The notes under the pieces: generated by a model
What the model saw: only the letters and a program-made list of their open reading frames with translations
What the model was told of the DNA's origin: nothing
Database searches by the model: none
Translations under genes and position numbers: made by a program
NCBI RefSeq assembly: GCF_048264025.1
Contig: NZ_JBLXDN010000004.1
Coordinates: 30,026 to 94,025, forward strand
DNA from: Nitrincola sp.
Lineage (GTDB): Bacteria > Pseudomonadota > Gammaproteobacteria > Pseudomonadales > Balneatricaceae
Direction: 5' to 3'
DNA: 64,000 nt
In this document: piece by piece, positions 1 through 60,375 of the stretch
How positions within the stretch are numbered: position 1 is the stretch's first letter
Layout: each line of letters opens with the position of its first letter

Positions 1-1
1 A

Positions 2-2174: not shown

Positions 2175-4805
2175 ATGTTGATGTTTCGGAGGGTACCGAA
2201 CCCTCAATCCCGCGTGTGGCGCCTGACCCGACTATTGCTGGTGGGGGCAGTCTCTATGGCGATTGGCGGGACAGTTTCAGCAGCAGAGCCCTCATCCTCG
2301 GATCAGCAAGCTAGCATTCAGCAGGACTATCACCGTTTGATGCTGAGTGCCCGAGCCGGTGAAATGGCGGGTGCGTATCTTCAGGAAAATGGCCAACGCC
2401 TGTTCATCACCCTGACGGACAGAGCCGATCTGAATGAATGGCGTCAGACCGGTGAGCGTCTGGTGCAGCAGTACAGTCTTTATCATGCGTCCAGCTTACA
2501 GACCCTGGGTGAGCGATCCCACCTGATAATTGATCTGGCCCGTCCGGTTTATCTGGTAGATGAAACGCTGAGCTTGTCAGTAGTTGGTTTGGTTAACTGG
2601 GAAATGGTGTTTGCTAACCTCGATGACACGGTTGTATCAGCAGAACTACTCGATTCGATCCAGGCTGAATCCCGTGGTGGTTTGATTGAATTAACCTTTA
2701 CCGGTCATCATGACCTGATTACTGAGTTAATGTTTGAACAGGACCCTGATCAACTGGTTATCGAATTACCCGGTGTGGATCCCCGACATTATTTACGTCA
2801 AGCCAATTTACAAATGCCCGCATTGCTGGGAATGCCCGAAGTGCAGGGGGCACCCAATGGACACTCCCGTTTGGTGTTTACTACCCAAGGGCCGCTGGAT
2901 CTGGTGGATGCACATACCAGTATTGATCCGGTGACCAACCGAAGCCGTATACATCTGTTGTTGGTACCTGATAGCGCTGTGTCTGAGCGCCTACTGATGG
3001 ACACAGAGCAATTGGATCGCTTTGAGCTTACCCGTGAAGCAGGTACTGGCCTCAATTTGATTATCGGCAAACTTGGCGAGTCTCGTGTGAATGGCTACTT
3101 TCTCGAAGCTCCAGGGCGTTTAATGGTGGACTTTCCCGGTGTCAGTCCCGAGGCTGTAGAGCAGGCGGTGTTTGCCTATTCCCCTGACCCTGATTACGTC
3201 AAGCGTATTCGCTATGGCAAAACCCGCCTGGGTTCAGCCAGAATAGAGTTAACGTTACAAGACGGTTATGCTGAGCAGTTGTCTCGGCAAACCGTTGCTC
3301 ATCGCGACAATTATGAGTTTGGAACACTGGTTTCACTACCTGAGGCCAGTCGCGTGTTATCAGAAGGAGATTATCCGGATGATTTGCAAGGTATTGCCTA
3401 CTTTGAACGCGATACGTTACGCCATTTGCCACGCTTTGACTTCAGTGTGCAGCCATCGTTGACTATAGGTTCAGTGACTCTATCGGGTGCTGAATACCGT
3501 GATGGCAGCAATTTGACAGCGCTGGAGCAAGGGCAACGATTCTCATTGATGACAGCCCTGGATGAAGCGATGCAGCGTGATCCAGCTTATCATGCAGCCC
3601 GGGCTGAGTTCCGTGCCACCCAGGAACTGATTCCTCAGGCACGTTCAGAATATTTGCCTCAGGTGAGTTTTTCGTATCAGTTTTCAGCTAAGAACCAGGA
3701 TGTGCTGAGTTCAGGATCCATTCCGGAAGAACAAACTACCTTGTCCGAACAAAACGCCTCCTTAACGTTGACACAACCTATCTACCGCCCGGGCAGTCTG
3801 ATTGGCCTGACGCAGGCTGAAAAAGCCGTTCAGCAAGCTGAATTGGCACTATTGGCTGCCGAGCAGTCGCTCATTATGCGTATTGCCGAGGCTTACCTGA
3901 ATGTGCTTTCTGCACAAGACAGTCTCGAAGTGGCTAAGGCTGAACACGAAGCCATAGCGACCCAGTTCCGTCAAACCGAGATCAGCTTTCGCAGTGGCTT
4001 GGCCAGTCGCAGTGATTTAAGCGAAGCCCAGAGTCTGACAGCGCTGACCCGTGCACGAATGATCGAGGCGCAGAACCGCCTGGATGATGCGCAGTTGGCT
4101 GTTAAAGAAATTATCGGCAGTGAAGTGGAAAGTCTGCATAGTTTTAGTGCGGATTTCCGGGCTGCACCACCTTTTCCTGCTCAGGTTGAGGCCTGGATCA
4201 GTGCCGCTCTGGATCAGAACCTGTCGTTGCAGTCGCAGCGTATGGCCGAGCAGATTGCCGGTAATCAGATTCGTCGTCAGCGTGCTGATCATTTGCCGAC
4301 AGTCGACTTGTTTGCATCCACCGGTTATCAGGATGCTGATAAAACGCTCTACAGTGATAGCCGTCAGACGGTCAGCAATTATGAAGTCGGCATTCGGGTC
4401 AATGTACCGATCTTTAGTGGTGGACGCACTTCCTCTCTGGTGCGCGAAGCAACAGCACGTTATGAACAGACCGGCCATGAAGTTGAGCTGGAGCATCGGC
4501 GCACTGAACGCACTGTGCGTTCAGCATTCAATGGGGTGACCAGCAGTGCGGAAATGTTGGCTGCGCTGCGTGAAGGGGTGTTGGCGCAGGAGGTTCGTCT
4601 GGCAACGCGGATGCGTGGTTTCCAGGCAGGACTGGAGTCAACCGTCGCGGTACTGGATGCCTACCAGAGCTACTATGCTGCACGACGTGATTTTCTGCAG
4701 TCACGTTATGATTATTTGATGAATCGACTGGTTCTGAAACAGTCTGTTGGCACGCTGAGTCGTCAGGATCTGGCTGAACTGGATCGCCTTCTGGAGCGCC
4801 ACTAA
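2175..4805 (+). CDS. TolC-family outer-membrane channel (C-terminal ~430 aa) with ~440-aa N-terminal extension carrying AMIN-like repeats
   Basis: Signal peptide LLLVGAVSMAIGGTVSAAEP. From nt ~3513 the sequence is TolC/OEP-like with two internally repeated halves (LMTALDEAMQRDPAYHAARAEFRATQELIPQARSEYLPQVSFSYQFS ... LSLQSQRMAEQIAGNQIRRQRADHLPTVDLFASTGY). The N-terminal part contains recurring strand motifs ending in hydrophobic-D/E-hydrophobic-P-G-V (LVIELPGVDP, LMVDFPGVSP, HLIIDLARP), as in AMIN domains. Confidence 0.85.
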   Translation: MLMFRRVPNPQSRVWRLTRLLLVGAVSMAIGGTVSAAEPSSSDQQASIQQDYHRLMLSARAGEMAGAYLQENGQRLFITLTDRADLNEWRQTGERLVQQYSLYHASSLQTLGERSHLIIDLARPVYLVDETLSLSVVGLVNWEMVFANLDDTVVSAELLDSIQAESRGGLIELTFTGHHDLITELMFEQDPDQLVIELPGVDPRHYLRQANLQMPALLGMPEVQGAPNGHSRLVFTTQGPLDLVDAHTSIDPVTNRSRIHLLLVPDSAVSERLLMDTEQLDRFELTREAGTGLNLIIGKLGESRVNGYFLEAPGRLMVDFPGVSPEAVEQAVFAYSPDPDYVKRIRYGKTRLGSARIELTLQDGYAEQLSRQTVAHRDNYEFGTLVSLPEASRVLSEGDYPDDLQGIAYFERDTLRHLPRFDFSVQPSLTIGSVTLSGAEYRDGSNLTALEQGQRFSLMTALDEAMQRDPAYHAARAEFRATQELIPQARSEYLPQVSFSYQFSAKNQDVLSSGSIPEEQTTLSEQNASLTLTQPIYRPGSLIGLTQAEKAVQQAELALLAAEQSLIMRIAEAYLNVLSAQDSLEVAKAEHEAIATQFRQTEISFRSGLASRSDLSEAQSLTALTRARMIEAQNRLDDAQLAVKEIIGSEVESLHSFSADFRAAPPFPAQVEAWISAALDQNLSLQSQRMAEQIAGNQIRRQRADHLPTVDLFASTGYQDADKTLYSDSRQTVSNYEVGIRVNVPIFSGGRTSSLVREATARYEQTGHEVELEHRRTERTVRSAFNGVTSSAEMLAALREGVLAQEVRLATRMRGFQAGLESTVAVLDAYQSYYAARRDFLQSRYDYLMNRLVLKQSVGTLSRQDLAELDRLLERH

Positions 4806-4832
4806 GTTGTGGAAGGTGAAGTTGAGTATTAA

Positions 4833-4854
4833 AGCGAGCTAACTCGCTGGAGGA
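4833..4854 (+). promoter_or_regulatory. Perfect 6-bp stem / 4-nt loop hairpin (AGCGAG-CTAA-CTCGCT) directly abutting the GGAGGA Shine-Dalgarno of the giant gene
   Basis: Read directly: 4833-4838 AGCGAG, 4839-4842 CTAA, 4843-4848 CTCGCT, 4849-4854 GGAGGA, ATG at 4861. No U-tract follows, so it is not an intrinsic terminator. Confidence 0.35.
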
Positions 4855-4860
4855 TTACAC

Positions 4861-7800
4861 ATGGGAAGCGCAGCACGCTATCTGCACAATGCGGCTGGAC
4901 AGTCCTGGAAGCATCGGGCCTTGCGGCAATGGCATGGCCTGATCAGGCGTTCGCTGGACACTCAGCGGGTTAATAGCCAGCGTCAAGCGACCACTGAGGT
5001 GGAGTTGCTTGAGCAGCGTTTTATGCTTTCCGGTGATCTGTTGGTGATACCACCCACCCCTCAGGATTCGCAGGAATCTGTGATCAATCTGCAGCACCAG
5101 GCAGAAGCCGATATGCTGGCGGATTTTTCACTTGGTGGCGTACAGCAGCAAAGCTTGATTGATGAGCTGATCTTCATTGATACGGCTGTTGAGCAGCCTG
5201 AATATCTGATAGAGCAAGCATTAGCCCAGCGTGGTGATGGCCAGGCCCGTGTTGAAGTGGTTTATCTGGATGCCGGTGCAGACGGTGTGCAGCAAATCAG
5301 CCAGTGGTTGTCGCAATATGCTGATTTGCAAGCGATCCATATTATTTCTCATGGCGAAGCCGCCAGTGTGCAGCTGGGCAACACCACACTTGATACGACC
5401 TCACTGGATGCTTATGCAGAAGTACTCAGTAGCTGGCAAACCGCTTTAGCTGAAGGCGCTGATCTGTTGTTTTATGGCTGCTCTGTGGCCGAGGGAGAGG
5501 CAGGTCAGGCTTTTGTTGAGCGTATTGCTGAACTCACTGGTGCGGATGTAGCGGCATCGGATGACATGACTGGTGCGGAGCAGTTGGGTGGTAATTGGAT
5601 CTTCGAATACACCACCGGGGTAATCGAAACCCAGGCATTATTCAGTGCCGGCCATACGGTTTACGATGCCTTACTGGCTGATCTGACATTTACGGATGAA
5701 TCAAAATCCGCCATATTGACTGCGCTGCAGAACCTGGACCAACTGGGTAACCAGGCACTCAATGATGCGTTATCTAATGCGGATATACCCGGGCTGAGTA
5801 ACACCAGTATCCTGAGCCTGTTGGACTTAGGTGGTGCCAATTTTGATTTGCATGCAAACGCCAATAACTATTTTGCCAGTGGCGGCCCACACACCCTCTC
5901 TGGGCTGGTCAGCTATCTCAACAATAATAGCGCTTTATTGCTTATTGACGGTATAGAAGCCACGCTGACAGTCGATGCCAGCAATCCAGCTATGCCAATC
6001 TATGGCTTGCGTCTGACAGCGGATCTACAGCGTAACTCGACACACACAGTAACACTGAATCCGGCTGGCTATACACTCGATGCTATCACAGCCGATGCTG
6101 TCACCCGGCTGAAACTGGCACTCGAAGCCGGTATTCGCTTGAGTACGGACCCGAGTGTTGACCCCGAGGGTTTTATCCGCGCAGATAAGCTGCAACTCAG
6201 TACGCAGATGTCCGGTGAAGGTGATTTTAGCCTGAATTTGGGTGCCGCGTTTACCTTGCAGGATCCAGACAATCTGGATAACAGTCGCCAGATCACCAAT
6301 AGCGAATATGCTGTTAGTCTGATTCAACGTCAGGTGACAGCTGAAGCTCAGGGGCGTTTTGCCTTAAGTGGTGCTACACAGCAGGCTGCATTTGGTGCTC
6401 AGGCCTATCTGGCGCTGCAGGGTATACTGAATGGCGACGCGCTGAGTTTCAATTTTTACCGTGATGCCAATCTAAGTGATGCAGCCATTCAGGCGCAACT
6501 GCAAACGTTGTTGGCGCACTGGGCGCAGTTGGCGGTACAGCTGGATCAGTTGCAAGCACTTTCTGTCGAGTTACCGCTGGTCGATCAGTCACTCCTGTCG
6601 CTGATGGTGACGGAAGATGGCCGCACTCTGGGTGATATTTTCCAGTTTGGTTACTATCTGCCGGGTGGCGGTTTTACCACTGTGTTGCAGCAATACCTCT
6701 CTCAGGGTGATGCCACCTACATGGGGTTGATGTTGGAGTTGCAGGATTACCTGCATGGCCGTGGGACTTATAGCAGTTTGCAGTCGCTGATTCCGGCCGA
6801 TGCCAGTGATTCCCTGTTCAACGTGACGGGAGGGCTTAATACGGCGGGTAACGAACTCGCTTTAGGCCTGGAGTTGGCACTAAACCGTGAGTTTCTGGCA
6901 CAGCTCAGCTTTGGTGATGCGCTTGCCAAGGTGGGTTTTGCCTGGGGTGATGGACAGGGAATAACCCTGAATGCTCTAATCGATCTCAAGTTTGATCACC
7001 GCATTACCACGTCTTCGGCCAGCTTTGACCTCAATGAACTTGCGTTACAGGTTAGTGCGCCTACTGGAACCTTCTATGCACCCGCTCTATTGGGTGCCTT
7101 GCCAGTCACTGCCAGTGGTGTGCTGACATTTGACTCTGGACGAGTCACTGTGACAGCCGTTGATGACGTTGTGTCAGCTGATACCTCAACTGCTGAGGTC
7201 AATGCTGCTCTGAGTATGACCCTTTCAGGTGATCTGTTTGGGGTGCCTCTGGAAACTCTGGCCGGTGGTGTTCCTGGGGTTGAGATCAGTTTTAATAATG
7301 GTGCGGCGACCTCTTGGACAGACATTGCCAACTATAACTCTGAGGTGACGCTGTCCCACTTTACTCAGTTGAGTGCATTGAGCAGTCTGGAACCCCAGCA
7401 GTTGATGGATATGCTGTCTGATGTTGTCCTGTACCTGGAATCCTTGCGTGATTCTGGTGAATTTGACGGTTTGCTCCCTTTCACTGAGGTGAATCTGGGG
7501 CAGGGGCTGGATTTCAGTCAGGGCCTGATGGCCTTGTTTAACGAGGGCCTGCAGGCAACCCGTCAGGAAATACTTGCGGGTCAGGCGGTATCACCACGTT
7601 TGACGGACAATCTGTCATTTGATTTACAGGTGCAAATGCCAGGGCAGTCAGAGCTGTCGGTATTGACCATTACACTGCTAGCCAGCGAAACCAGCAGCTT
7701 TACCCATATCAATCAACTCGCCAGCCTCATTGATCAGAAAATAGCGCAGGCCGCTAACGCTGTATTGGGCTGGCAATTGCTGGATAGTGATGTGCCGGTA

Positions 7801-10800
7801 ACAGCGCTGGTACCGGTGGCGGCAGTCACTGAGCTGATCAAAGGCGGCCTGTTACAAGCAGGTCGCTATAGCAACGCTCAGCAGCAGGTCAGGTTGCACA
7901 CCAGCGGGGGCGATTTCCGTATCCGTGTTGGGGATGGCAGTTGGTCTGCAGAGGTCTCCAGTTATAGCAGTGCGGCAGAATTGCAGCGTGTATTGGAGAA
8001 TCTGCCGGAGATTGGCAAGGGTAATGTGCAGGTCACAGGGGACGCACGTAACTGGCAGGTTACTTTTGTCGGTGCATTGTCGGGTCAGGAGGTCGCACCG
8101 CTGGAAGTGGAATTTGCTGCCAATGCCAAGGCCGGTGGTTTGTTAGAAGTCTCCGCACAGGATCTGGACCGCGTCGATGGGCTCACCTACGGGCGCCTGG
8201 TGATCTCTCAAACACAGCCAGGTACGTTTGAGAAATTGAATATTGCACCATCTGTAGGGATTCAATTTAGCGAAGAACAGGCCGCGGCATTTGATGTCGA
8301 TGAAGATACACCGGTGCAACCAGCGGTGTATCAGTTGCAGTTGATTCATGCGGCCGGTGGTAGTTTCAGCGTTAATTTCAGCTATGACGGACAGTCATTT
8401 GAGACTGAGACGATCAGTCTGGAGGGCGAGGGAACCTGGAGCGATCGGATTGCATTGGCCTTGAATAAGGCGATTAACGATGCCTACCGTGAGGATAATG
8501 CGGGGCATGTAGATCAGGAATATCTCACAGTAGAACTGGCTCCCTTGGGCACTACCAATGACGGTATCCAGTCATTCTATATTGCAGCGAATATTCTGGA
8601 GGTCAGCGCCGGAAAAACCTTGAGCGGCTTCTCGGCTGATATTACTGAGCTCCGTTCTCAACCCGGTGTACAGGTGTTCGTGACTACCCTACAAGAGGGT
8701 CGCGTGGGTACCTCTGCGGAAGGGCGGTTGGGTGAAGTTCAGCGTCTGACCTTGGCGAATGTTGCCGGTGGCAGTCTGCAGATGCTATTGAATCTGGCTG
8801 ATGAAGCACTGGAATCTGATGTCCTGAGTCTTACCACATCGGGTGAGTTGAAAACGGCCAATCAATTAGCGGCCGATCTTGCTTCCACGCTCTATCAGAT
8901 GCTGATTAAGGTCTATGCCGACCTGGATCCAGCTGATATTCAGGTGTCAGTTGTCGCGGGTCAGGGCTATACCTTCGATATCCGTTTTACCGGTCAATTG
9001 TCCGGCCAGGATATAAATACCCTGTCAATCAATAAAACCAGCATAGTCTCAGCATCGGATTTTACCACCAGCTATGCCGATCTTACCTTGGCTGGTTTTC
9101 AGGCGGCAGGCGAGTCCATGCAGACTCATTCACAGCCGGGATTCACTGATTGGCACGTGTTGATGGACCGTTTCCAGCACGCAACCAACAGCCTGTTGAA
9201 TAACACCCTGACAACTGAATTTGCCGAGTTCAGTGTCAATCCTCGTTTTGATCTGGCCAGCCAAACACTCTGGCTGGACCTGTTCGTAGGCTCAGGTATC
9301 CAGATCGATGCAGTTCAGTTGCTATTGGATGCTGAAGCGGGTGGACTAGAGGGGTTCAGTGTCGATGCCTGGATGGATATTACTCATGAAACCTTTTTCA
9401 ATGGATCATTGGGCTTTGACCTGAGTCAGCCACAGGCTATTTCACTCCTGGCTGTGGGGCCTGTGGTGGGCTCTGTGACTGGAACTCAGGCTGATCCTGT
9501 GCTTAACAACCAAACGCTGTCGCTAGGATTTAATGTGGATGGACGCCAGTTTAATCTGGCTGACATACTGGCTGCTCAACCCACTGAAAATGGATTCGCC
9601 AGTGCGGCAGGCGCACAAGTATCGGTGACCTCGCAGACTGATTATATTAACAGCAGCGTCAATGCATTTATTCGTGTTAATGGCAGCGTGCTGGAAAACA
9701 GTGAAATCAGTGCCGTAGGCCGTGCGCCCGGCCTGGCGCTAAAGGTTGGTAGTGATGAGTATGTTAGTGTCATTAATGGGCTGGATGCTGGAGCAACCAT
9801 TGAGGTCGTTATCCAGATCAATGGTGTTGAGCGGTCGTTATTAGTTGATTCGACTATCACTGCCAATGCTCTCAGAGACAGCATCAATAGTGCCTTTAAT
9901 AGTGCATTTGACGCCACCCTGAACGGTGATCGGCTGGTGTCCATTCTGAATGCGGAGCTGGCCGCAATTGCCGGCACTGGACCTCTGTCAGGCTATGATA
10001 ATCTGGCTGGTGCACTGTATTTCGAGTTGACTGCAGAAGGGCAGTTGCAACTCCGCACCTTTGCCGCGGTTAACCAGATTATTCTGACACAGCCGAATAC
10101 GGCGGAGGGTGTTGTTGGACTGGAGGCTCTAGGAATCCAAATGGGTGTTGAGAACGCCATCCGACCCGCACCTGATTCTAACTATACACTCCCGTCTGAT
10201 GGACGACTGACAGAAGATGCTGCATTCCAGCTGCGCCTCGATAATGCCACAGCTATTGATATTACCCTTCCAGCTTCACTGACGGTTGATAACACTTCGT
10301 TGGCAGATCTGATGGCGGATATTCAGCAGGTACTGAATTCAATTGATATTTCGGCACATGCTTATCTGGGTACGCTAGACGGCGGGTTGGGCTATACCCA
10401 CCTGGGTCAGTTGATCCGCGCAAATTTGCTTTCCACTGAAATCAATACCGGGCTGGACCTCAGCTTTGGAAACGAAGCAGACGCTGATCAGGATATAGAA
10501 CATAGCTACTACCTGGAGCTGCAGGTTCTTGGCAATAAAATTGCGCGTGCCCAGATTGAGATGGCGGATGAGGGCAATATTGGTAACCGTGAACTCGGTC
10601 TGACGGCCAGACAATCGGTAAAAACAGCCGCTGTTTCGATGCAACTGCAAAATGCCATGATAGGTGGCCAGCTCAGTGCCGCAATGCAGGCCGGTGGTTC
10701 GGCTTCGGGTCAGCAAGGGTTGCTGGAGCTGCTTTTTGGCGATATCCAGATTGCCGATGGCGCCTATCAGGGTGCATTTGCGTACTATCTGGTTGATACC

Positions 10801-25535: not shown

Positions 25536-25549
25536 TAGAGGCACAGAGA

Positions 25550-32965: not shown

Positions 32966-32987
32966 CAGCACCCTAGAGGATCAATGC

Positions 32988-33290
32988 ATGAGTGATGAAA
33001 ACGAACTGAAATCAGCCGCACAAGCTAACCCTGCCCAGTCGCCCAAAATCCACTGGGACGACAGTGAAATGCAGACTAACTATTCCAATGTCTGCAATGT
33101 CATGGGTACGCGTGAGGAGATCATGTTGCTGTTCGGTTCCAATCAGGCCTGGCAAACGGGTCAGACCGAAGTGAAGGTTAAATTATCCAATCGTATTCTG
33201 CTGACACCCCATGCGGCGAAACGCCTCAAGGTATTGCTGGAAATGGGCCTGAAAGAATATGAAACCAGATTCGGTGAAGTCAAACTCTGA
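32988..33290 (+). CDS. DUF3467-family small protein (100 aa)
   Basis: AGAGGA sits 7 nt upstream of ATG 32988. YSNVCNVMGTREEIMLLFG ... RILLTPHAAKRLKVLLEMGLKEYETRFGEV matches the DUF3467 pattern as I remember it. The longer ORF from 32919 would overlap the tpsA 3' end and was not used. Confidence 0.75.
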   Translation: MSDENELKSAAQANPAQSPKIHWDDSEMQTNYSNVCNVMGTREEIMLLFGSNQAWQTGQTEVKVKLSNRILLTPHAAKRLKVLLEMGLKEYETRFGEVKL

Positions 33291-35082
33291 TATTGCTGTG
33301 ACAGAATCATCCAACGACTGGCTCGGACAGCTACAACAGGCGTCTGAGCCAGATTTTTTTGTACGTTGGCTGGCGTTGTTACAGCAGGAGTTGCCAGGTC
33401 TTGAAGAGGCCGTATTGGTATTGGGACCAGCTGATCAGGGGCCTTTCAAGCCCATTGTGACACATCCACAGAACACCCCCTGTTCATCGGTGTTGATGCG
33501 CTTGTGCGAACAGGTTATGCAACTACGCCGTCCGTTGAGTCAGCGTAATGAGTCTGTGACCCACTGGGTAGTGCCTATTCAACAGGGTGGTGCACTACTG
33601 GGGGTATTGGGTCTGACGGCTAAGAGTCTCTCGACACAGCAACGCCAATGGCTGCAGTGGGGCCTGGGGTGGATACTGACCCGTACCGAGACTTATCAGC
33701 AGGCTGGAGACAGTGAGCTGAGTGAACGTCTGATGGTGCTGCTGGATCTGTTGATGTCCTCTGTTGGAGGGCAGTCATTGCAGGATGCTTGTCAGGCTGT
33801 TTTGTCTCAGGCTGCTGTGAATCTGGGTTGTGATCGAATAGCGCTGGGCTTTGCTACCGGGCAGAGTGTTCGCATGGTAACCCTCTCCAACAGTGCTGAA
33901 TTCACCCGCAGAATCGATCTGGTGCAGTGTATTGAAGGTGCCATGAACGAGGCCGTGGACCAGGGGCATAGTCTATGCTGGCCGCAGCAACAGACCAGTC
34001 TCGATACCTTCAGAGCACATCAGGCGTTAATTCGTGAGCAGGGTAATCACACGGTATTGACGGTACCCTTCATGACGGATGTCGAAAATTACGGCGCCAT
34101 CTGTTTCGAGTGGGCTGAAGCGCCTGATGAACAGCAGCCAGAGTTAGCTGAATCCATTGCCAGTGTTGTTGGCCGCGTGCTGTTGGAAAAGCGTCAGTCA
34201 GAACTGTCTTTGCTCAGTTATCTGGGCCGGCGCGTGAAACATGTCTGCAAGCGTCTGGTCGGGCCTCGCTACCTGGGCACCAAGCTGCTGGTGTTGTTAG
34301 TGACCGTGAGCGTGATATTTTTTACCTTGGCTGAAGGCACTTTCCGCTTAGCATCAGATGCTCGCCTTGAAGGGGCATCGAACCGCACTCTTTCGGCTCC
34401 CTTTGACAGCTATGTTATGGTTGCCCATTACCGTGCGGGTCAGACCGTGGAAGAAGGCGAGGTGCTGGCCGAGCTGGATGACAGTGATCTGCGCCTTGAG
34501 CAACTTCGCTGGCAGAGCCAGTTAGCACAGTTTGAACGTCAAATGCGCCAGTCCCAGGCGCAACGCGATACGGCTCAGGCAAGGGTTGCTGCCGCACAGA
34601 CCGAGCAGGCCGAAGCTCAACTGGCACTGACCAACTCATTGCTCAGCCGCACGCAGATTCGCGCACCCTTTACGGCGCTGATTACGCGAGGTGATCTATC
34701 CCAAGACTTGGGCCTGCCGGTTACCAAAGGGCAAGTGCTGTTTGAGCTGGCGCCACTGGATGAATATCGTTTAGTCCTGGATCTGGCAGAAACTGATATG
34801 GCACATATTCGTGAAGGGCAGCAAGGCCAGTTGGTTCTGAAAGCCTTTCCAGAGGCCAGAATCGATTTCGAGGTGATTAGCGTAACGCCCGTGGCCGAAG
34901 CTCGTGATGGCAAGAACCTGTTTCGCGTTGAAGCTGAAATCGCTCAGCTGTTACCCGCTATGCGTCCTGGTATGGAAGGTGTGGCAAAAGTGGAGGTCAG
35001 TCAGCAGCGTTTGATCTGGATATGGACACGTACACTGGTAGACTGGGCACGTCTGCAATGGTGGAAGTGGTTGGGGCGCTAA
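33259..35082 (+). CDS. Tandem GAF-like cytoplasmic domains, 1 TM, then a periplasmic HlyD-family adaptor
   Basis: The ATG at 33259 overlaps the upstream gene by 32 nt; an in-frame GTG at 33298 is the alternative start. GAF-like blocks (ACQAVLSQAAVNLGCDRIALGF ... VLTVPFMTDVENYGAICFEW). TM LLVLLVTVSVIFFTLA. HlyD features: lipoyl-like hairpin VAHYRAGQTVEEGEVLAELDD, a coiled coil, and TQIRAPFTALITR. Confidence 0.8.
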   Translation: MKPDSVKSNSDIAVTESSNDWLGQLQQASEPDFFVRWLALLQQELPGLEEAVLVLGPADQGPFKPIVTHPQNTPCSSVLMRLCEQVMQLRRPLSQRNESVTHWVVPIQQGGALLGVLGLTAKSLSTQQRQWLQWGLGWILTRTETYQQAGDSELSERLMVLLDLLMSSVGGQSLQDACQAVLSQAAVNLGCDRIALGFATGQSVRMVTLSNSAEFTRRIDLVQCIEGAMNEAVDQGHSLCWPQQQTSLDTFRAHQALIREQGNHTVLTVPFMTDVENYGAICFEWAEAPDEQQPELAESIASVVGRVLLEKRQSELSLLSYLGRRVKHVCKRLVGPRYLGTKLLVLLVTVSVIFFTLAEGTFRLASDARLEGASNRTLSAPFDSYVMVAHYRAGQTVEEGEVLAELDDSDLRLEQLRWQSQLAQFERQMRQSQAQRDTAQARVAAAQTEQAEAQLALTNSLLSRTQIRAPFTALITRGDLSQDLGLPVTKGQVLFELAPLDEYRLVLDLAETDMAHIREGQQGQLVLKAFPEARIDFEVISVTPVAEARDGKNLFRVEAEIAQLLPAMRPGMEGVAKVEVSQQRLIWIWTRTLVDWARLQWWKWLGR

Positions 35083-37238
35083 TGTCTTCTCTTTTTTCAG
35101 CGTCCTGGTATCGCTTGGCAGATCTGGTCCCTCGGCTACGTACACAAACCCGGATTTTTCGGCATGTCTATCGTGGTCAGCGCTGGCATGTCATTCAGGA
35201 TTTAGCCAGTGGCAAATTCTTGCGTCTGAACCCCACAGCTTACAGTATCCTCTCGCTGGTGGATGGACAGTCTACGCTTGATCAAATCTGGAAACAGGCG
35301 GTTGAGCAGTTGCAGGATGATGCGCCGAGTCAGGATGAGGTGCTGCAGTTGATGACGCAGTTAAACCAGATCGGTGTACTGACCAGCAATCGAACTCCCG
35401 ATATTGAAGAGCTTAGCGAACGCTCTATCAAAGCACGACGCAATCGTGTTAAACAATATATTGCCAACCCATTGGCGCTAAGGGTGCCATTGATTGATCC
35501 GGATCGTTTTTTGCAGCACTTAGTGGGTCATATTCCAGTCTGGGCACGACCGCTGCTGCTGACTATCTGGTTAGTCACTGTGGTGTTCGGTATCAGTCTT
35601 GCGGCACTTCACTGGCCCGAACTGACCGGTGATCTGACACGACTGGTATTTACCCCGGAGTATATTTTTACGCTGATCCTGGTGTTTCCACTGATCAAAG
35701 CGATCCATGAATTGGGACATGGTATTGCGATCAAACTGTTTGGTGGCCAGTGTCATGAAATGGGGTTGATGTTTCTGGTGATGGTCCCGATTCCCTACGT
35801 TGATGCCAGTCATGCCATAGCATTTAAGAGCAAATACCAGCGTATGCTGGTGGGCGCTGCCGGGATGATGATTGAGCTATTTGTTGCCAGTCTCGCACTG
35901 TGGCTCTGGACCTGGACACAGCCGGGACTGCTGAGGGTCTTTCTACACGATATTGTGATCCTCGCGGGTGTGGTAACGCTGTTATTCAACTTGAACCCTT
36001 TATTAAGATTCGATGGTTACTACATTTTCAGTGACTGGCTGGAAATTCCCAATCTGGGGAATAAAGCGAATCAGTATTTTGGCTATTTACTGAAACGTTA
36101 CTTGTTGCGTATTGACCGAGGCTTACAGCCGCCACGTCTAACGGCTGGAGAACCGGCTTGGTTGATTAGCTTTGCACTGTTGTCTTTTGTATATCGGATG
36201 TTCATTGTCGGGATGATTCTGCTGTTTGTCGCCTCCCAGTTTTTTGTCATCGGGGTGCTGCTGGCGGCCTATGCGTTCTTTTTGATGATTTTGATGCCGT
36301 TGAGTCGTACCCTCAAGACAGCCTTTAGCGATCCATTAATCAGTGAAAAGCGTCCTCGTCTGTACCTGGTCAGTTTCACGGCTGTTAGTCTGCTGGTAGG
36401 GTTGGTCGGGGTGCTGCCCTTGCCATCAGCGACCTTTGTAGAGGGGGTGGTGTGGATGCCGGAGCAGTCACAGGTACGCGCACGGACCGACTGTTTTGGT
36501 CAGCAGGTACTACACAACCCCGGGGTCGTGAAAGCCGATGAGCCCCTGCTATACTGTGATGAGCCTGTATTGCCAGCCGAGCTGCAGGAAACGCAGGCAC
36601 GTTTGGCTGAGCTGGATGCGGAGTTGCTGCTGGCGAGAGGGACAGACAGAGTCCTGGCACAAAATCTTCTGGAAGAGCGCCAGCATGTTGAGCAGCGTGT
36701 TGCTACGCTTGAACAGCGTATTGATGCCTTCGAAATTCGCAGTCCACATGCGGGTGAATTTGTGATGTCATCGCCTGATGACTTTATGGGTCGCTGGTAT
36801 CATCGTGGCGATATTATTGGCTATCTGCTGGATCCTAGCCACTTCACTTTACTTGTTGCTGTTGATCAGGCCGATGTTGACCGTATTCGCAGTGACAGTG
36901 TCAGTATTGCTATGCGTTCTGCCGACTCAGTACATCAGTCACACCCACTTCGAATATTGCGAGCTGTGCCAGCAGCCACGCGTGATCTGCCAAGCCTGGC
37001 GTTGTCATTGCAAGGGGGAGGGCGTATTGGCTTAAGCCCTGACGGAGCGCCGGGAAGTCGGCCTCAGGCACTCAATCCGGTATTTCTGTTCGAACTGGAA
37101 CTGCTGCAGCCCGAAAACTTTGCGGTACAGGCTTTGGGTGGACGTGTCTATGTTCGCTTTGCGCATACCGATGAGTCAGCGGCACGGCAGATATACCGTC
37201 ACCTGCGTGAACTCTTTATTCGTCGTTTTGGAATCTGA
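35082..37238 (+). CDS. PqqD/RRE-like domain, polytopic M50 (site-2-protease-type) metallopeptidase and C-terminal HlyD-like domain, fused
   Basis: Start at the ATG of TAATG (35080-35084), overlapping the upstream stop. N-terminal FLRLNPTAYSILSLVDGQSTLDQIWKQAVEQL...VLQLMTQLNQIGVL is PqqD-like. HELGH at 35706-35720; NPLLRFDG at 35994-36017. Several TM helices. The C-terminal coiled coil plus FEIRSPHAGEF is HlyD-like. Confidence 0.8.
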   Translation: MSSLFSASWYRLADLVPRLRTQTRIFRHVYRGQRWHVIQDLASGKFLRLNPTAYSILSLVDGQSTLDQIWKQAVEQLQDDAPSQDEVLQLMTQLNQIGVLTSNRTPDIEELSERSIKARRNRVKQYIANPLALRVPLIDPDRFLQHLVGHIPVWARPLLLTIWLVTVVFGISLAALHWPELTGDLTRLVFTPEYIFTLILVFPLIKAIHELGHGIAIKLFGGQCHEMGLMFLVMVPIPYVDASHAIAFKSKYQRMLVGAAGMMIELFVASLALWLWTWTQPGLLRVFLHDIVILAGVVTLLFNLNPLLRFDGYYIFSDWLEIPNLGNKANQYFGYLLKRYLLRIDRGLQPPRLTAGEPAWLISFALLSFVYRMFIVGMILLFVASQFFVIGVLLAAYAFFLMILMPLSRTLKTAFSDPLISEKRPRLYLVSFTAVSLLVGLVGVLPLPSATFVEGVVWMPEQSQVRARTDCFGQQVLHNPGVVKADEPLLYCDEPVLPAELQETQARLAELDAELLLARGTDRVLAQNLLEERQHVEQRVATLEQRIDAFEIRSPHAGEFVMSSPDDFMGRWYHRGDIIGYLLDPSHFTLLVAVDQADVDRIRSDSVSIAMRSADSVHQSHPLRILRAVPAATRDLPSLALSLQGGGRIGLSPDGAPGSRPQALNPVFLFELELLQPENFAVQALGGRVYVRFAHTDESAARQIYRHLRELFIRRFGI

Positions 37239-37241
37239 TCC

Positions 37242-39221
37242 ATGTATGCATTGCAAACACGCACTGTTCAGTATCCGCAACGTACAGATTGGCATGAAGA
37301 TCCCTTGTTAGTGCGATTCTGGGACCGCGGTGCGACGTTGTTTCGTCGGCTGATTCTGATGAATGAAGCGCGACAAAAGGCATTCGTACGGGCGGTGTCA
37401 AAGTGTGAAATGGAACTGCAGGGGGCAACGTCTGAAGTGTTACAGCAGGCTTTATGTGATGTGCGCCTGCATTTGCGTCGGGAGGGTCTACAGCAGCGGC
37501 ATTTGGCACAGGCTTTTGCACTGGTGCGTGTGGCATCGCAACAGACGCTAGGGTTACGCCATCATGATGTACAGATTCGTGGCGGCCATGCCTTAGTGCA
37601 GGGTTTTCTGATCGAAATGAATACCGGCGAAGGTAAAACACTGACGGCTACCCTGGCCGCTGCTGTGGCGGCACTGTCAGGTCGACAAGTTCAGGTGGTG
37701 ACGGTCAATGATTATCTGGCTCAACGGGATGCTACTGAAATGCAGCCTCTCTATGAATGGTTGGGGCTACGCATCGCCTGGGTGCTTGAACAGGCCGGAC
37801 CGGCTGAACGACGCCAGGCCTATCAGGCTGATATTGTGTACTGCACCGGAAAAACGCTGACCTTTGACTACCTCAAGGACCGTATCGCTCTGGATGATCG
37901 TGTATCGCCTTTAAAAATGTTACTGGATGCCTACACCGGTCGCTGGCAACAACAGGTGCTCTTGCCAGGATTGCAGTTTGCCATAGTGGATGAAGTGGAC
38001 AGCATTCTGATCGATGAAGCACGCACACCGCTGATTATTTCATCCTCTGGCGGCTCAGCAGAAGAAGACGCTTTTTATGTCAGCGCGATTGAATTCGCCC
38101 AGCAACTGCGACAGGCAGAACATTTTCAATTCAGCGAAAACCGTCAGTTGATTGACCTGACACTGGCTGGACGTCATCTGCTGGAGCAACTGACTGCTGA
38201 AGCGGAAGGGCTGTGGTGTAACCGTTTTCGGCGAGAAGAAGCGATATTGCAAGCACTCAGTGCATTGCATCGCTTTCAACGGGATATTCATTATATTGTT
38301 CGCGACGACAAGGTGCTGATTGTTGATGAACATACTGGGCGGATCATGCCAGATCGTTCCTGGGAGAAAGGTATGCAGCAGCTGATTGAGGTCAAGGAGA
38401 GTGTTTCCTTGACACCGCCTCGTGTCACTCTGGCAAAAATCAGTTTTCAGCTGTTCTTTCGTCGCTTTCTGCAACTTTCCGGAATGTCGGGCACCTGTCG
38501 TGAAATTGCCGGGGAGATCAGTCGGGTGTACAACCTGCGGATGATCCGTATCCCGCCGCATAAACCCAGCCAACGTGTACAACATGCCAATCAGTTATTC
38601 GCCGATGTAGAGCAAAAATGGCTGGCAGTTGAAGCCTGTATTATTGAGTGCCAGCAACGCGGGCAGCCGGTGCTGGTTGGGACCCGTTCGATTTTAGCCG
38701 CAGATACCTTATCATCGCGCCTGCAGTCCCGTGGCGTTGAGCACCAATTATTACATGCCCGCCAGGATGAAACTGAGGCAGAAATTGTTGCACAGGCAGG
38801 GCAGCGCGGGCGCGTCACCATCGCTACGAATATGGCTGGACGAGGAACCGATATCAAACTGCAAGCGGGTGTAGCTGAACTGGGTGGTTTGCATGTACTG
38901 ATCACTGAGTTGCATGATAATCAGCGTATCGATCGGCAATTAATTGGCCGTTGTGCTCGACAGGGCGAACCCGGTAGTTGGCAGGAAATATTGTCACTTG
39001 AGGATGAGCTGGTGGCCAACTGGTTACCTGTATTAAATCGTCTACTGAGCCTGTTGTTGCGCTCTGCTCCTGAAAATCGAGCAATTCAATGGATGGCCCG
39101 CCGCTATTACCGATCCGCACAGTGGATGCTGGAGCGCTTACACCGGCGTATTCGTGCCAAACTGCTTAAGGCCGAATTCAATTTGCGCCGGTCACTTTCT
39201 TTTACCGGTAAGATGGAGTAA
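37242..39221 (+). CDS. Truncated SecA-like ATPase (659 aa; NBD1, reduced preprotein-binding region, NBD2; no C-terminal scaffold/wing/linker)
   Basis: Collinear with E. coli SecA. LGLRHHDVQIRGGHALVQGFLIEMNTGEGKTLTATLAAAVAAL (GEGKT at 37626-37640), VVTVNDYLAQRD, FAIVDEVDSILIDEARTPLIIS (DEVD at 37989-38000), YIVRDDKVLIVDEHTGR, GMSGT, PVLVGT, TIATNMAGRGTDIKL, GGLHVLITELHDNQRIDRQLIGRCARQGEPGS. The protein ends about 75 aa after the last motif. Confidence 0.9.
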   Translation: MYALQTRTVQYPQRTDWHEDPLLVRFWDRGATLFRRLILMNEARQKAFVRAVSKCEMELQGATSEVLQQALCDVRLHLRREGLQQRHLAQAFALVRVASQQTLGLRHHDVQIRGGHALVQGFLIEMNTGEGKTLTATLAAAVAALSGRQVQVVTVNDYLAQRDATEMQPLYEWLGLRIAWVLEQAGPAERRQAYQADIVYCTGKTLTFDYLKDRIALDDRVSPLKMLLDAYTGRWQQQVLLPGLQFAIVDEVDSILIDEARTPLIISSSGGSAEEDAFYVSAIEFAQQLRQAEHFQFSENRQLIDLTLAGRHLLEQLTAEAEGLWCNRFRREEAILQALSALHRFQRDIHYIVRDDKVLIVDEHTGRIMPDRSWEKGMQQLIEVKESVSLTPPRVTLAKISFQLFFRRFLQLSGMSGTCREIAGEISRVYNLRMIRIPPHKPSQRVQHANQLFADVEQKWLAVEACIIECQQRGQPVLVGTRSILAADTLSSRLQSRGVEHQLLHARQDETEAEIVAQAGQRGRVTIATNMAGRGTDIKLQAGVAELGGLHVLITELHDNQRIDRQLIGRCARQGEPGSWQEILSLEDELVANWLPVLNRLLSLLLRSAPENRAIQWMARRYYRSAQWMLERLHRRIRAKLLKAEFNLRRSLSFTGKME

Positions 39222-39224
39222 ATC

Positions 39225-39950
39225 ATGCGTTGGATGAAACAACAGATAGCTGCCGGGTTTTGCGTACTTGCCGTTGCTGTACCTATTCAGGCAACTGAGC
39301 TGTCAGTGCTGAGTTGTTTGCTGGAACCTTCACTGGATGCCGAGTTAGGTGTGCCTGTTGAGGGTGTGCTGGCTAAGGTTCATGCTGAGCGTTCGGTAAG
39401 GGTAGAGCAGGGTGCCGTATTGGCAGAGCTGGACCTCTCGGTAGAGCAAGCGATAATTAGCATGCAGCGTGCTCGCGAAAATTATGCCAGTCGGCGTCTG
39501 GAGCGCATTCAGGAGTTGCAATCAGGCAACCTGATACCCGCTCAGGAAGTGGATGACATCCGCACTGAGCAGCAACTGGCCCGCCTTGAGCTGGCTGTCC
39601 AGCAGGAACAATTGGAACTGCGCCGAGTGGTTAGTCCATTTTCCGGTATCATTGTGGAACGCTATGCTGATGTCGGTGACTTGATACAAAAAAGTCATAT
39701 TTTTCGATTAGTGCAGTTGGACCCGCTTTATGTTGAGGTGGTGATGACACTGGATCAATTTGGTCGGGTCGTTCCCGGCGACAGGTATCAGGTACATTTG
39801 CAACATCTAGAGACACAGCATGATGCTGAAGTGATTGCTGTTGATCCGATTATAGATGCCGGAAGTGGTACCTTTCGCGTGCGTCTGTCATTACCCAATC
39901 CGGATTCGCATATCCCGGCAGGTTTGAGTTGTAGTATTAACCCACTTTAA
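39225..39950 (+). CDS. Small (241 aa) periplasmic HlyD/MFP-type adaptor with signal peptide
   Basis: ATG lies 3 nt after the SecA-like stop. Signal peptide AAGFCVLAVAVPIQA. Lipoyl-like VEGVLAKVHAERSVRVEQGAVLAELD; short coiled coil; RRVVSPFSGIIVERYADVGD; beta-barrel-like FRVRLSLPNPD. Confidence 0.75.
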   Translation: MRWMKQQIAAGFCVLAVAVPIQATELSVLSCLLEPSLDAELGVPVEGVLAKVHAERSVRVEQGAVLAELDLSVEQAIISMQRARENYASRRLERIQELQSGNLIPAQEVDDIRTEQQLARLELAVQQEQLELRRVVSPFSGIIVERYADVGDLIQKSHIFRLVQLDPLYVEVVMTLDQFGRVVPGDRYQVHLQHLETQHDAEVIAVDPIIDAGSGTFRVRLSLPNPDSHIPAGLSCSINPL

Positions 39951-40008
39951 CTTTACGGATTGCGCATAAGGCTCTATCCGACATGAATAACTGATCAGAG
40001 ATTTAAGT

Positions 40009-40752
40009 ATGTATAAGAAACTGGTTCCACTGAACAAAGAACATCATCAACAATTGCGTATCCAGCCGATCAATGGCTTTCAGTTTGCAGCTGGTGTGCA
40101 CGTTGCCGCCGTTATGCTGCATGAGTTTGCCCGCGCCTCCGCGATTTACCCGATAGTGTTTCTTGAAGATCAGGCTCAGGATAAATTCTATCCCGTTGCT
40201 CTATTAGGTCTGGAGCAGAATGAGAATCTGTTTGTGACCGATGAAGGACGTTGGCAAGCCTCCTACATTCCCGCTGTAATTCGGCGTTATCCATTTGCAT
40301 TGGCTCGTTCGGGTGAAGACGAAGTGTTTACCGTCTGTATTGACGAAGACGCCGAATTGGTTAGTACCCAGGAAGGTAATCCGTTGTTCTCTGATACCGG
40401 TGAACCTGCTGAGGTGATTGAACAGGTCAAACGCTATTTGGGTGAGTTACAGCAAATGGAAGTGATCACTGAAGCATTTTGTCGGTTTCTGCAAAGCCAC
40501 AATCTGTTTACACCGCTAAATATGCAGGTTCGTGTGGGTAATAAAGTACAAAATGTGACCGGGTGCTATGTTGTGAATGAGCAGCGTTTTGCCAATCTTT
40601 CTGACGAGCTTTTTCTACAGATTCGTCATCAGCACTATCTGGCACCCATCTATGCACACCTGACTTCACTGTCGCGTACTGAAAATCTGGCGCTACTTAA
40701 GCAGGGTATTACATCGGTTAGTCAACCCTCGGATGACGACCAGGTTCATTAA
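40009..40752 (+). CDS. SapC-family protein
   Basis: HEFARASAIYPIVFLEDQAQDKFYPVALLGLEQNENLFVTDEGRWQASYIPAVIRRYPFAL is the characteristic SapC-family core. Confidence 0.85.
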   Translation: MYKKLVPLNKEHHQQLRIQPINGFQFAAGVHVAAVMLHEFARASAIYPIVFLEDQAQDKFYPVALLGLEQNENLFVTDEGRWQASYIPAVIRRYPFALARSGEDEVFTVCIDEDAELVSTQEGNPLFSDTGEPAEVIEQVKRYLGELQQMEVITEAFCRFLQSHNLFTPLNMQVRVGNKVQNVTGCYVVNEQRFANLSDELFLQIRHQHYLAPIYAHLTSLSRTENLALLKQGITSVSQPSDDDQVH

Positions 40753-40967: not shown

Positions 40968-41462
40968 ATGATCAAAATGAATAAACTTCGTTCTTCACTA
41001 TTACTGACTTTATTTTTTTCGTCAGTGACCTTCGCACAAACACCGCAAACAACAGAGTATCAGGACTGGGTTGGCATTTGTGCTGAGGTTCAGGGTCAAG
41101 AGCGTTGTGAAATACAGCAAGTGCTGAATATGGAGAACGAACAGGGTAATACTCGACTGCTCAGAGCAACAATAAGCAAGCTAGATAATCAGTTGATTAT
41201 GCAACTGCTTTTGCCTCTGGGACTGGATGTTCGTCCGGGCGTAGTGATGCAGATCGATGAAGGTGCCGAGTTTGGCGCGCCATTTTTGACCTGCGTTCAG
41301 GAAGGTTGTCTGGTTGCAGTACCCCTGGACGAAAATCGCTTGACTGAACTGCGTTCGGGTAGTGTTGCCAAGGTGGGTTTCCGGCCTTTTAATACAGAAC
41401 AAACACTGGTAGTAGAACTCTCGTTGATGGGCTTTACGCGTGCCAGCCAGACGGTAAAATAA
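40968..41462 (+). CDS. Invasion-associated locus B (IalB)-family periplasmic protein
   Basis: Signal peptide LLLTLFFSSVTFAQ. YQDWVGICAEVQGQERCEIQQ ... FLTCVQEGCLVAVPLDENRLTELRSGSVAKVGF is the IalB pattern. ATG 40977 is an alternative start. Confidence 0.75.
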   Translation: MIKMNKLRSSLLLTLFFSSVTFAQTPQTTEYQDWVGICAEVQGQERCEIQQVLNMENEQGNTRLLRATISKLDNQLIMQLLLPLGLDVRPGVVMQIDEGAEFGAPFLTCVQEGCLVAVPLDENRLTELRSGSVAKVGFRPFNTEQTLVVELSLMGFTRASQTVK

Positions 41463-60366: not shown

Positions 60367-60375
60367 GAGTCATTC

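Follow-up and report, generated by a model that had tools for sequence, protein, structure and literature searches.

The stretch of DNA analysed here (the window) comprises 64,000 nucleotides (nt) from Nitrincola sp. (NCBI RefSeq assembly GCF_048264025.1, contig NZ_JBLXDN010000004.1, positions 30,026 to 94,025 of the forward strand). Between positions 2175 and 40752 it carries ten closely packed open reading frames (ORFs), all on the + strand, which code for a TolC-family outer-membrane duct, an exoprotein of 6188 amino acids (aa), a two-partner secretion (TPS) pair, a DUF3467 protein, four proteins referred to here as the core (a GAF-containing adaptor, a fusion of an M50 peptidase with an adaptor domain, a SecA-like ATPase and a short adaptor), and a SapC family protein. 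The order of the four core genes is the same in all 87 loci compared. The block probably represents one co-inherited functional unit, made up of a dedicated envelope-spanning exporter of the "secondary SecA_DEAD" or type-I-secretion-related kind, the exporter's cargo and accessory surface proteins. The ten genes are the following, with positions in the window and Pfam or NCBIfam matches in brackets:

2175 to 4805, + strand: TolC-family outer-membrane duct with signal peptide, 876 aa (OEP, E 1.2e-56; AMIN, E 9.2e-09; TIGR01844, 299.5 bits against a cut-off of 225)
4861 to 23427, + strand: giant exoprotein of 6188 aa, the probable cargo (in 50 of 68 loci the gene directly upstream of the core encodes a homologue of its residues ~4300-5990)
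23424 to 25535, + strand: TpsB, an Omp85-type transporter (POTRA_2, E 1.4e-20; ShlB, E 1.2e-28)
25550 to 32965, + strand: TpsA exoprotein of 2471 aa (TPS domain PF05860, 127.9 bits; TIGR01901, 82.6 bits)
32988 to 33290, + strand: DUF3467, a cytoplasmic protein of 100 aa, accessory factor (PF11950, E 9.5e-25)
33259 to 35082, + strand: adaptor 1, with a cytoplasmic N-terminus of about 338 residues that holds a GAF domain, one transmembrane helix (residues 339-357) and a periplasmic HlyD-type domain (GAF, E 9.7e-10; HlyD_3, E 4.8e-15)
35082 to 37238, + strand: M50 fusion, composed of a PqqD domain, a polytopic M50/site-2-protease-like core and a periplasmic adaptor domain at nt 36429-37235 (PqqD, E 1.5e-08; M50, 19 bits)
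37242 to 39221, + strand: truncated SecA paralogue of 659 aa, with first nucleotide-binding domain, preprotein cross-linking domain, second nucleotide-binding domain and the start of the scaffold helix (SecA_DEAD, E 1.4e-94; SecA_PP_bind, E 4.3e-26; P-loop_SecA)
39225 to 39950, + strand: adaptor 3, a short periplasmic HlyD-type protein with a hydrophobic N-terminus as signal or anchor (HlyD_D23, E 1e-14; TIGR01730, 109 bits against a cut-off of 94.9)
40009 to 40752, + strand: SapC family protein (PF07277, E 1e-74)

The distribution of the core was determined by searching 185,579 species-representative genomes for two peptide patterns derived from aligned M50 proteins. This yielded 211 confirmed loci, 80 of which were included in the 87 loci compared, with flanks of about 10 kb beyond which the far ends of giant genes lie. 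Among the Gammaproteobacteria the carriers are Nitrincola, Marinobacterium, Oceanisphaera, Kistimonas and Motiliproteus, and among the Betaproteobacteria Achromobacter including A. xylosoxidans, Bordetella hinzii, B. trematum, Zoogloea, Roseateles, Limnobacter and Sulfuritalea; Alphaproteobacteria (Thioclava, Yoonia, Rhodobacter), Magnetococcales and Desulfobacterota carry it as well. Methylobacterium extorquens AM1 (MexAM1_META1p2399-2402) is another carrier. A very long + strand ORF abuts the core upstream in each of the 68 loci with enough upstream sequence. In 50 of these it is a homologue of the window giant, and in 13, from the lineage to which the window belongs, it is TpsA (Nitrincola, Marinobacterium, Oceanisphaera and Ectothiorhodospiraceae type). 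What is established is the gene set of the window with its order and packing, the conservation of the core in many Proteobacteria and in Desulfobacterota, and a giant LEPR-XLL protein as its constant neighbour. Within 10 kb downstream of the core, no recurrent gene family besides TPS and SapC was identified.

A preliminary description of the window, made from its letters alone, had suggested that the block is a co-regulated supercluster, a view that would be refuted if the TPS pair or the giant gene were freely exchangeable or absent beside the SecA-like genes of relatives. This interpretation is supported in part. The unit of giant, TolC and core is strongly supported; wherever the flank is visible, the giant is neither exchanged nor missing. 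The TPS pair is adjacent in only 21 of 49 fully flanked loci; it is integrated in one clade and optional overall. Within Nitrincola, the entire block and both of its flanks are conserved.

The gene set and sizes described earlier were reproduced from the ORF list, and re-reading of the sequence gave the same nine junctions, in order a gap of 55 nt, an overlap of ATGA, gaps of 14 and 22 nt, overlaps of 32 nt and of TAATG, and gaps of 3, 3 and 58 nt. For three genes in-frame alternatives to the start exist. ATG 32988 was taken for DUF3467 (mechanical alternative TTG 32919), ATG 35082 for the M50 gene (alternative 35022) and 23424 for tpsB (alternatives 23439 or 23457); the gene calls of close relatives support the first two, with a DUF3467 of 94 aa and an M50 protein of 718 aa in locus L002. 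It had also been stated that no ORF on the opposite strand looks genuine, and the − strand ORFs are indeed at most 192 aa long and all nested in + strand genes. When eight of them were compared with Pfam, seven had no match at E <= 0.01 and none exceeded a threshold, the remaining one giving a sub-threshold match to DUF3060 (16.1 against 23.1 bits). Recurrent − strand "families" in the relatives were rejected as antisense artefacts of the core and giant genes. Scans for promoters and terminators gave counts equal to the expectation from shuffled sequence, with no site in the intergenic gaps. By itself the single-strand run is weak evidence for a unit, and it is the conservation of gene order in 87 of 87 loci that is decisive. 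The GC content of the cluster is 0.519 compared to 0.48-0.49 in the flanks, and at third codon positions the values are alike (0.509 and 0.503). A recent foreign island is not supported, because third-position GC is equal and both flanks are conserved across the genus.

In several cases the core is carried on plasmids, namely in Methylosinus, Rhodobacterales, Rhizobium, Sinorhizobium, Ensifer and Mesorhizobium (for example NZ_AP022333.1, locus L111, and NZ_CP123586.1, locus L112). On the Methylosinus plasmid pMSC49a the order is giant (8847 aa), DUF3467, adaptor, M50 fusion, SecA-like protein, adaptor and TolC, the TolC gene following directly after the core. Plasmid carriage fits the horizontal transfer proposed in 2015 (PMC4452313).

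The domain labels originally given to the ten proteins were upheld by Pfam and NCBIfam. The M50 fusion contains the motif HELGH at nt 35706-35720 and, further on, N-x-N-P-L-L-R-F-D-G; the residues H209, E210, H213, N303, N305, P306 and D311 are invariant in 92 sequences. An AlphaFold2 model with a predicted local distance difference test (pLDDT) value of 86.9 comprises an N-terminal PqqD-like domain, a helical membrane core (residues 141-443) and a C-terminal domain of 270 residues, and in this predicted model the latter matches MexA, MacA and AcrA (Foldseek E 3e-10, probability 1.0). In this protein the M50 core keeps its catalytic motifs and is joined to a domain for peptide recognition of the PqqD type and to an adaptor domain.

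The best NCBIfam match of the M50 fusion is the daptide intramembrane metalloprotease NF041824 (E 4e-47). Together with the PqqD domain, this match could be taken to mean that the PqqD domain, the HExxH membrane protease and the HlyD adaptors mature and export a ribosomally synthesised and post-translationally modified peptide (RiPP), the giant being a mere neighbour. This is very improbable. The score of 161 bits lies far under the cut-off of 300, the block contains neither modification enzymes nor a variable precursor gene, DUF3467 is well folded and highly conserved and thus no precursor, and the giant is adjacent in essentially every locus. The RiPP export reading was rejected on account of the sub-cut-off score and the lack of precursor and modification genes.

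The SecA-like protein aligns to residues ~35-604 of the 841 residues of Bacillus subtilis SecA and ends within the first scaffold helix. Wing domain, two-helix finger and C-terminal tail are thus missing, and no SecA_SW match was found in Pfam. The ATPase motifs, namely Walker A GEGKT, DEVD and the arginine-finger segment GRGTD...RQGEPG, are intact in the alignment with SecA. The protein stays below every NCBIfam cut-off for SecA and SecA2 (570 against 862, 554 against 800 and 481 against 930 bits). As judged from these alignments, it is a SecA paralogue that has kept the ATPase and the preprotein clamp but not the parts that dock to SecY. In the Gram-positive SecA2/SecY2/Asp systems, a dedicated SecA paralogue is likewise found beside a very large, serine-rich adhesin. 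In contrast to these, the window contains no SecY2 or Asp genes, its SecA is devoid of the wing, the two-helix finger and the C-terminal tail, and the system is Gram-negative with a TolC duct. The locus is neither a Sec nor a SecA2 system.

With the GAF-containing, membrane-anchored protein, the protease-fused domain and the short periplasmic protein, three adaptor-type proteins accompany the TolC duct. In this respect the locus resembles type I secretion: HlyD_3 and HlyD_D23 are present in two proteins, an adaptor fold in the M50 fusion, and the duct scores above the TIGR01844 cut-off. The type I systems for giant RTX adhesins (LapA/LapBCE, MpIBP, SiiE) likewise combine adaptors and a TolC duct with a giant cargo that is repetitive, binds calcium, has no Sec signal and is encoded beside the exporter. 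However, neither ABC_tran nor ABC_membrane matched any of the ten proteins in Pfam, and for want of an ABC transporter the locus does not count as a type I system. Instead, it contains the truncated SecA and the M50-adaptor fusion, three different adaptor-type proteins and not one, and a cargo with an N-terminal LEPR-XLL motif. Two adjacent genes for ABC exporter half-transporters (ABC_membrane and ABC_tran) are located outside the cluster at 55301-58704, 15 kb downstream, with no adaptor gene alongside.

The TolC protein has an N-terminal periplasmic extension of about 450 residues (window 2175-3525) which holds the AMIN domain, a domain otherwise known in secretins and amidases. The extension is kept in all close TolC homologues found, which are 851-996 aa long. 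The search for these homologues gave 14 matches and does not cover the placement of TolC in Betaproteobacteria and Magnetococcales. AMIN-TolC lies immediately 5' of the giant in every reachable relative (Nitrincola, Marinobacterium and several metagenomic contigs), and directly upstream of a giant with LEPR-XLL and DUF4347 in loci L088, L089, L091-L096, L115 and L116. In L091 (1-9957) and L094, a classical type I set with an ABC_tran protein and an AprE-type adaptor, together with a Calx-beta/RTX protein of 5873 aa, was found just upstream of IalB, AMIN-TolC and the giant. Since the type I set immediately adjoins these genes, AMIN-TolC may serve two exporters in L091 and L094.

The preliminary description had pointed to two very large exoproteins, one of 6188 aa without signal peptide and one of 2471 aa with a TPS domain, and both entries hold. 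For the giant, inspection and hydropathy revealed neither an N-terminal hydrophobic segment nor a Sec signal peptide. Its recognisable parts are these:

4999 to 5061, + strand: LEPR-XLL motif, residues 47-67, behind a basic stretch (NCBIfam NF012209, 25.8 bits against a cut-off of 17)
5167 to 5652, + strand: DUF4347 domain, residues 103-264 (PF14252, E 9.6e-54)
16996 to 18177, + strand: RTX-type calcium-binding nonapeptide repeats (HemolysinCabind, 23.7 bits against a cut-off of 23; partial matches to NCBIfam RTX families)
22282 to 22731, + strand: VCBS and bacterial cadherin-like repeats (TIGR01965 VCBS, 224 bits in four stretches; Cadherin_4, E 2.1e-12)
23335 to 23424, + strand: C-terminal tail, an Ala/Leu/Thr-rich stretch followed by G-R-I-L-W-G (from a comparison of the tails of upstream giants)

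The LEPR-XLL match is above the curated cut-off in the giants of the window, of Marinobacterium and of Methylosinus, where the plasmid-encoded giant scores 30.2 bits and contains LEPR-XLL while DUF4347 is absent. The motif E-x-x-E-P/Q-R-Y/F-L/M-L-S is kept in the giants of L088, L089 and L091. From its sequence and position, the LEPR-XLL region is a candidate N-terminal targeting or leader element. In the DUF4347 alignment, Ser-His-Gly is invariant, as is Tyr-Gly-Cys about 40 residues further on. Both motifs appear to trail hydrophobic, strand-like stretches, as they would in a caspase-like His/Cys dyad. The only relative of the DUF4347 profile among PDB sequences was 9qpe_G, a 'DUF4347 domain-containing protein', with a weak match (E 0.013). 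The DUF4347 protein PA0256 of Pseudomonas aeruginosa has been proposed to be an Hcp-dependent type VI effector (PMC8262886). Giants of 9239, 11,395 and 11,635 aa are among those recorded in the relatives. Marinobacterium sp. D7 (L088:1-6209) encodes a second, smaller DUF4347 protein of 2140 aa with He_PIG repeats, whose gene is followed by those for a HlyD adaptor of 448 aa and a further M50-adaptor fusion; IalB, AMIN-TolC and the giant of 9239 aa follow a few kb downstream of this group.

At the other end, the window giant terminates in ...TRPGRILWGWNG. Of 53 distinct giants adjacent to the core, 35 have the motif [ILVMF]-x-W among their last 100 residues, compared to 0-0.24 per 100 residues elsewhere in those proteins, and it mostly comes after a hydrophobic stretch rich in Ala, Gly and Leu and before basic residues. 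The C-termini of the TpsA proteins are without this tail motif, an absence that suggests the giant rather than TpsA as the cognate cargo in Nitrincola.

DUF3467 is encoded directly upstream of the GAF-adaptor gene in 60 of the 87 loci. It is highly conserved (712 clusters at 50% identity, almost all of them stand-alone), and its AlphaFold2 model (pLDDT 88.6) consists of three beta strands and one helix. A function as a SecB-like chaperone was considered and rejected: the profile gave nothing below E 0.29 against PDB sequences, and Foldseek gave no significant match, the best being PC4 (E 0.12); SecB was absent from the 50 matches listed. The sequence G-R-I-x-W-D at the C-termini of the giants resembles the near-invariant N-terminal P-K-I-x-W-D-D-S of DUF3467 (window 23335-23424 and 33045-33070; giants in L005-L082). 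In the model, the P-K-I-x-W-D-D-S segment has no regular secondary structure, yet a pLDDT of about 94. This likeness in sequence may reflect a shared binding epitope.

TpsB and TpsA correspond to the definition of two-partner secretion (type Vb), with POTRA domains and a ShlB barrel in the former and, in the latter, a TPS domain behind a Sec-type signal with a hydrophobic segment at residues 18-36 (by inspection and hydropathy). Compared to FhaC/FhaB and ShlB/ShlA they form a standard pair, but one which is embedded in and co-inherited with a locus for TolC, adaptors and a SecA-like protein, and the earlier judgement that this is not a standard layout was right. Among the 49 fully flanked loci, that is, those with at least 3 kb on either side of the core, the pair is adjacent to the core in 21, downstream in 11 and upstream in 10. 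In Betaproteobacteria and Magnetococcales it directly follows the short adaptor, and in loci of the Nitrincola/Marinobacterium type it lies between the giant and DUF3467. The orthologues in Betaproteobacteria and Magnetococcales share 40-48% identity over at least 1100 residues for TpsA and 38-45% for TpsB, and the core proteins, with 40-52% identity, have diverged to the same degree.

These data bear on the question whether TolC, giant and core form one system beside which TpsB and TpsA (with SapC and IalB) are an independent adhesin module that merely shares the neighbourhood or the operon. This is possible but rather unlikely. TpsA has its own Sec signal and TPS domain, TpsB is complete, TpsA has no sequence similarity to the giant, and SapC stands beside the core in few lineages; in 28 of the 49 loci the pair is not adjacent at all. 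Against mere juxtaposition, the orthologous TpsA and TpsB have diverged along with the core in three classes and stand beside it in two arrangements, the giant gene and tpsB overlap by ATGA, and the pair never occurs without DUF3467, which is present in 21 of 21 TPS-bearing loci compared to 14 of 28 others (Fisher p 7e-5, uncorrected for phylogeny). With orthologues in Gamma- and Betaproteobacteria and Magnetococcales that have diverged as the core has, the pair is not a chance insertion, and because it is adjacent in only 21 of 49 loci, it is a clade-specific accessory and no universal part. On the sequence comparison, the TPS pair is an old co-inherited accessory of one large subfamily.

A view from the side of the cargo was obtained by scanning metagenomes with the LEPR plus DUF4347 N-terminus, which gave 19 loci. 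Five of these encode window-like giants, each with AMIN-TolC directly upstream. In ten others the genes code for an OEP protein, an adaptor, a second adaptor, an M50-adaptor fusion and the LEPR/DUF4347 protein, and there is no SecA-like gene. The loci of this sister arrangement include L097, L100-L103, L105, L106, L108 and L109, with neither SecA-like protein nor DUF3467 within reach; in L100 and L109, where the downstream flank is visible, a SecA-like gene is absent there too. In L100 (3508-14470), the OEP protein has 563 aa, the HlyD adaptor 281 aa, the second adaptor 467 aa with a cytoplasmic N-terminus of about 200 aa, and the M50-adaptor fusion 713 aa with HELGH intact. The giant of L100 is an ORF of 1633 aa, followed by an AAA_25 gene and an integrase gene. 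From these loci it follows that the common denominator of LEPR/DUF4347 proteins is the M50-adaptor fusion, two further adaptors and an outer-membrane factor, and SecA-like protein and DUF3467, as far as gene content tells, mark the subfamily of the window.

For the probable exporter, the following sequence of events is proposed. The protein of 6188 aa would be made in the cytoplasm without a Sec signal. Its basic N-terminus and the LEPR-XLL motif would be caught by the cytoplasmic PqqD domain of the M50 fusion, possibly with the assistance of DUF3467, and the truncated SecA would then feed the unfolded chain, N-terminus first and driven by ATP, into a platform in the inner membrane that consists of the M50 core and the adaptor anchors. 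The three adaptor domains would bridge to AMIN-TolC, so that the chain could exit without a periplasmic stage, and the RTX, VCBS and cadherin-like repeats would fold with calcium outside the cell. The M50 site might remove the leader, or cut the Ala/Gly-rich C-terminal tail, which would otherwise act as a tether, or both. TpsA would be exported separately via Sec and TpsB and presumably become the partner of the giant on the surface. The scheme is similar to a peptidase-containing type I exporter in which SecA replaces the ABC ATPase and M50 the C39 peptidase; in the peptidase-containing ABC bacteriocin exporters, too, a protease domain is fused to an inner-membrane component and a leader is recognised.

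An alternative would keep the classical polarity of a LapA-like adhesin. Here, the C-terminal tail would be the signal and export would proceed C-terminus first; the folded LEPR/DUF4347 region would be a retention plug under TolC, and PqqD-M50 would release the adhesin on a signal sensed by GAF, in the role of LapG/LapD. The RTX repeats and the conserved C-terminal element are in line with this, as are a folded alpha/beta DUF4347 just after the N-terminal motif, the GAF domain on an adaptor and the variants without SecA. However, no ABC transporter is available to recognise a C-terminal signal, and SecA motors are known to act from an N-terminal signal onward. The tails of many giants, hydrophobic and then basic, look like a stop-transfer anchor and not like a type I signal, and the combination of PqqD with a protease follows the logic of N-terminal leader peptides. 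Classical polarity is thus considered improbable.

Several points also weigh against export through the M50 fusion and SecA as proposed. We know of no M50 protease that has been shown to conduct a protein, and the M50 domain of the window scores 19.0 bits for PF02163, below the gathering threshold of 27.2, which the M50 proteins of relatives exceed (29.0 bits in L100, 29.7 in L088). The RTX repeats and the conserved C-terminal element would fit C-terminus-first type I export equally well. The TPS pair needs, on known principles, none of the other genes, and, as described, it is not beside the core in more than half of the fully flanked loci. Subgroups of Rhodobacterales, Achromobacter and Kistimonas are without DUF3467, and some of these lack the LEPR match or the C-terminal motif. 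Finally, the SecA-less loci keep the fusion, two adaptors and the OEP protein, so that SecA is not needed for the general scheme.

A part of this gene set has been described before. Kamneva, Poudel and Ward (2015) predicted in silico Gram-negative "secondary SecA_DEAD" proteins without wing and scaffold domain, which are encoded together with a GAF and HlyD protein, a membrane protein of the Peptidase_M50-like kind, a further adaptor (HlyD/biotin-lipoyl) and in some cases an OEP; a function related to type I secretion was suggested there, in which SecA would supply the ATPase and M50 the membrane part (PMC4452313). The four core genes of the window are the same as those of that module, and its SecA-like protein is likewise without wing and scaffold. 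In the part of the text accessible, however, no substrate is named, and DUF3467, giants with LEPR-XLL or DUF4347, TPS, SapC and IalB are not mentioned (PMC4452313). A full-text literature search retrieved no experimental study of the core, and for DUF3467, DUF4347, LEPR-XLL, the combination of PqqD, SecA and HlyD, and SecA-like proteins with TolC it retrieved incidental mentions and no functional study. Relative to the literature searched, the assignment of the cargo, the motifs at its two termini, the M50 protein's adaptor fold, the accessories DUF3467, TPS, SapC and IalB, and the SecA-less variant appear to be new.

Giant proteins of Omnitrophota and Actinobacteria contain built-in SecA_DEAD and preprotein-binding domains without scaffold and wing, for which a role in the giant's own export was proposed (bioRxiv 10.1101/2023.11.21.568195). 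There, in contrast to the window, SecA is fused into the giant, and no set of adaptor, TolC and M50 is described. [quoted passage not shown] No SecA-like/M50 core is linked to them; the neighbourhood of the acquired secA gene Cag_1676 was not checked.

As a tentative proposal that could well need revision, the locus may belong to a distinct Gram-negative class of secretion systems for giant LEPR-XLL proteins. In this class, the site-2-protease/adaptor fusion with its domain for peptide recognition would be the substrate-specific inner-membrane unit of a TolC duct, a SecA-derived ATPase that no longer fits SecYEG would drive the chain in one large subfamily, and the co-evolving TPS pair would supply a surface partner. 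If this is true, a TolC-linked exporter has taken over SecA, outside the Sec translocon, as its source of power, there is a new way across two membranes for proteins of 6,000 to more than 11,000 residues, and a role is found for the LEPR-XLL motif, DUF4347, DUF3467 and a neglected SecA paralogue. The same export route may serve the giant symbiosis proteins of Chlorochromatium, whose genes have SapC and TolC beside them. The carriers number at least 211 among the species-representative genomes, and they comprise opportunistic pathogens (Achromobacter xylosoxidans, Bordetella hinzii, B. trematum) as well as the animal-associated Kistimonas, magnetotactic bacteria, and rhizobia and methanotrophs with the genes on plasmids. 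Present annotation is misleading, since "prepilin peptidase" and "DEAD/DEAH box helicase" are the names in use for the SecA-like protein, and "PqqD family peptide modification chaperone" and 'PqqD family protein' those for the M50 fusion.

SapC adjoins the core in L001, L002, L009 and L015. It recurs in Nitrincola and in one Ectothiorhodospiraceae genome, and on an Alisedimentitalea plasmid its gene is divergent from the giant gene. It is a recurrent but not universal accessory; its profile gave no match among PDB sequences. To the right of SapC, the following gene was identified:

40968 to 41462, + strand: IalB family protein (PF06776, E 4.2e-25)

IalB follows SapC in the Nitrincola relatives and stands immediately before AMIN-TolC in L088, L091, L093 and L094 (Marinobacterium type). 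Because of this recurrence beside SapC or AMIN-TolC, it is probably the eleventh member, and the unit probably reaches to 41462, beyond the end at 40752 given in the preliminary description.

In Nitrincola, the block is flanked on the left by a response regulator and a sensor kinase and on the right by IalB, EAL, DUF4442 and ABC permease genes. The sensor kinase gene (SBP_bac_3, PAS, HisKA, HATPase; window 1-2014) runs beyond the left end of the window, and its ORF of 644 aa with a GTG start is an artefact of the window edge, since the kinases of relatives have 698-700 aa. A sensor kinase and an OmpR-type regulator are encoded directly upstream of tolC in all Nitrincola relatives, and a different kinase/regulator pair occupies the same position in Marinobacterium sp. 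D7 (L088). The sensor kinase is a candidate regulator of the cluster. Just right of IalB, an EAL-domain gene is located at 41567-42355; its position is kept in the relatives, chemoreceptor and GST genes being inserted before it in L001. Two genes for HDOD-domain proteins lie further right (window 58795-62428), and the EAL and HDOD genes could point to a cyclic-di-GMP context for the adhesin locus.

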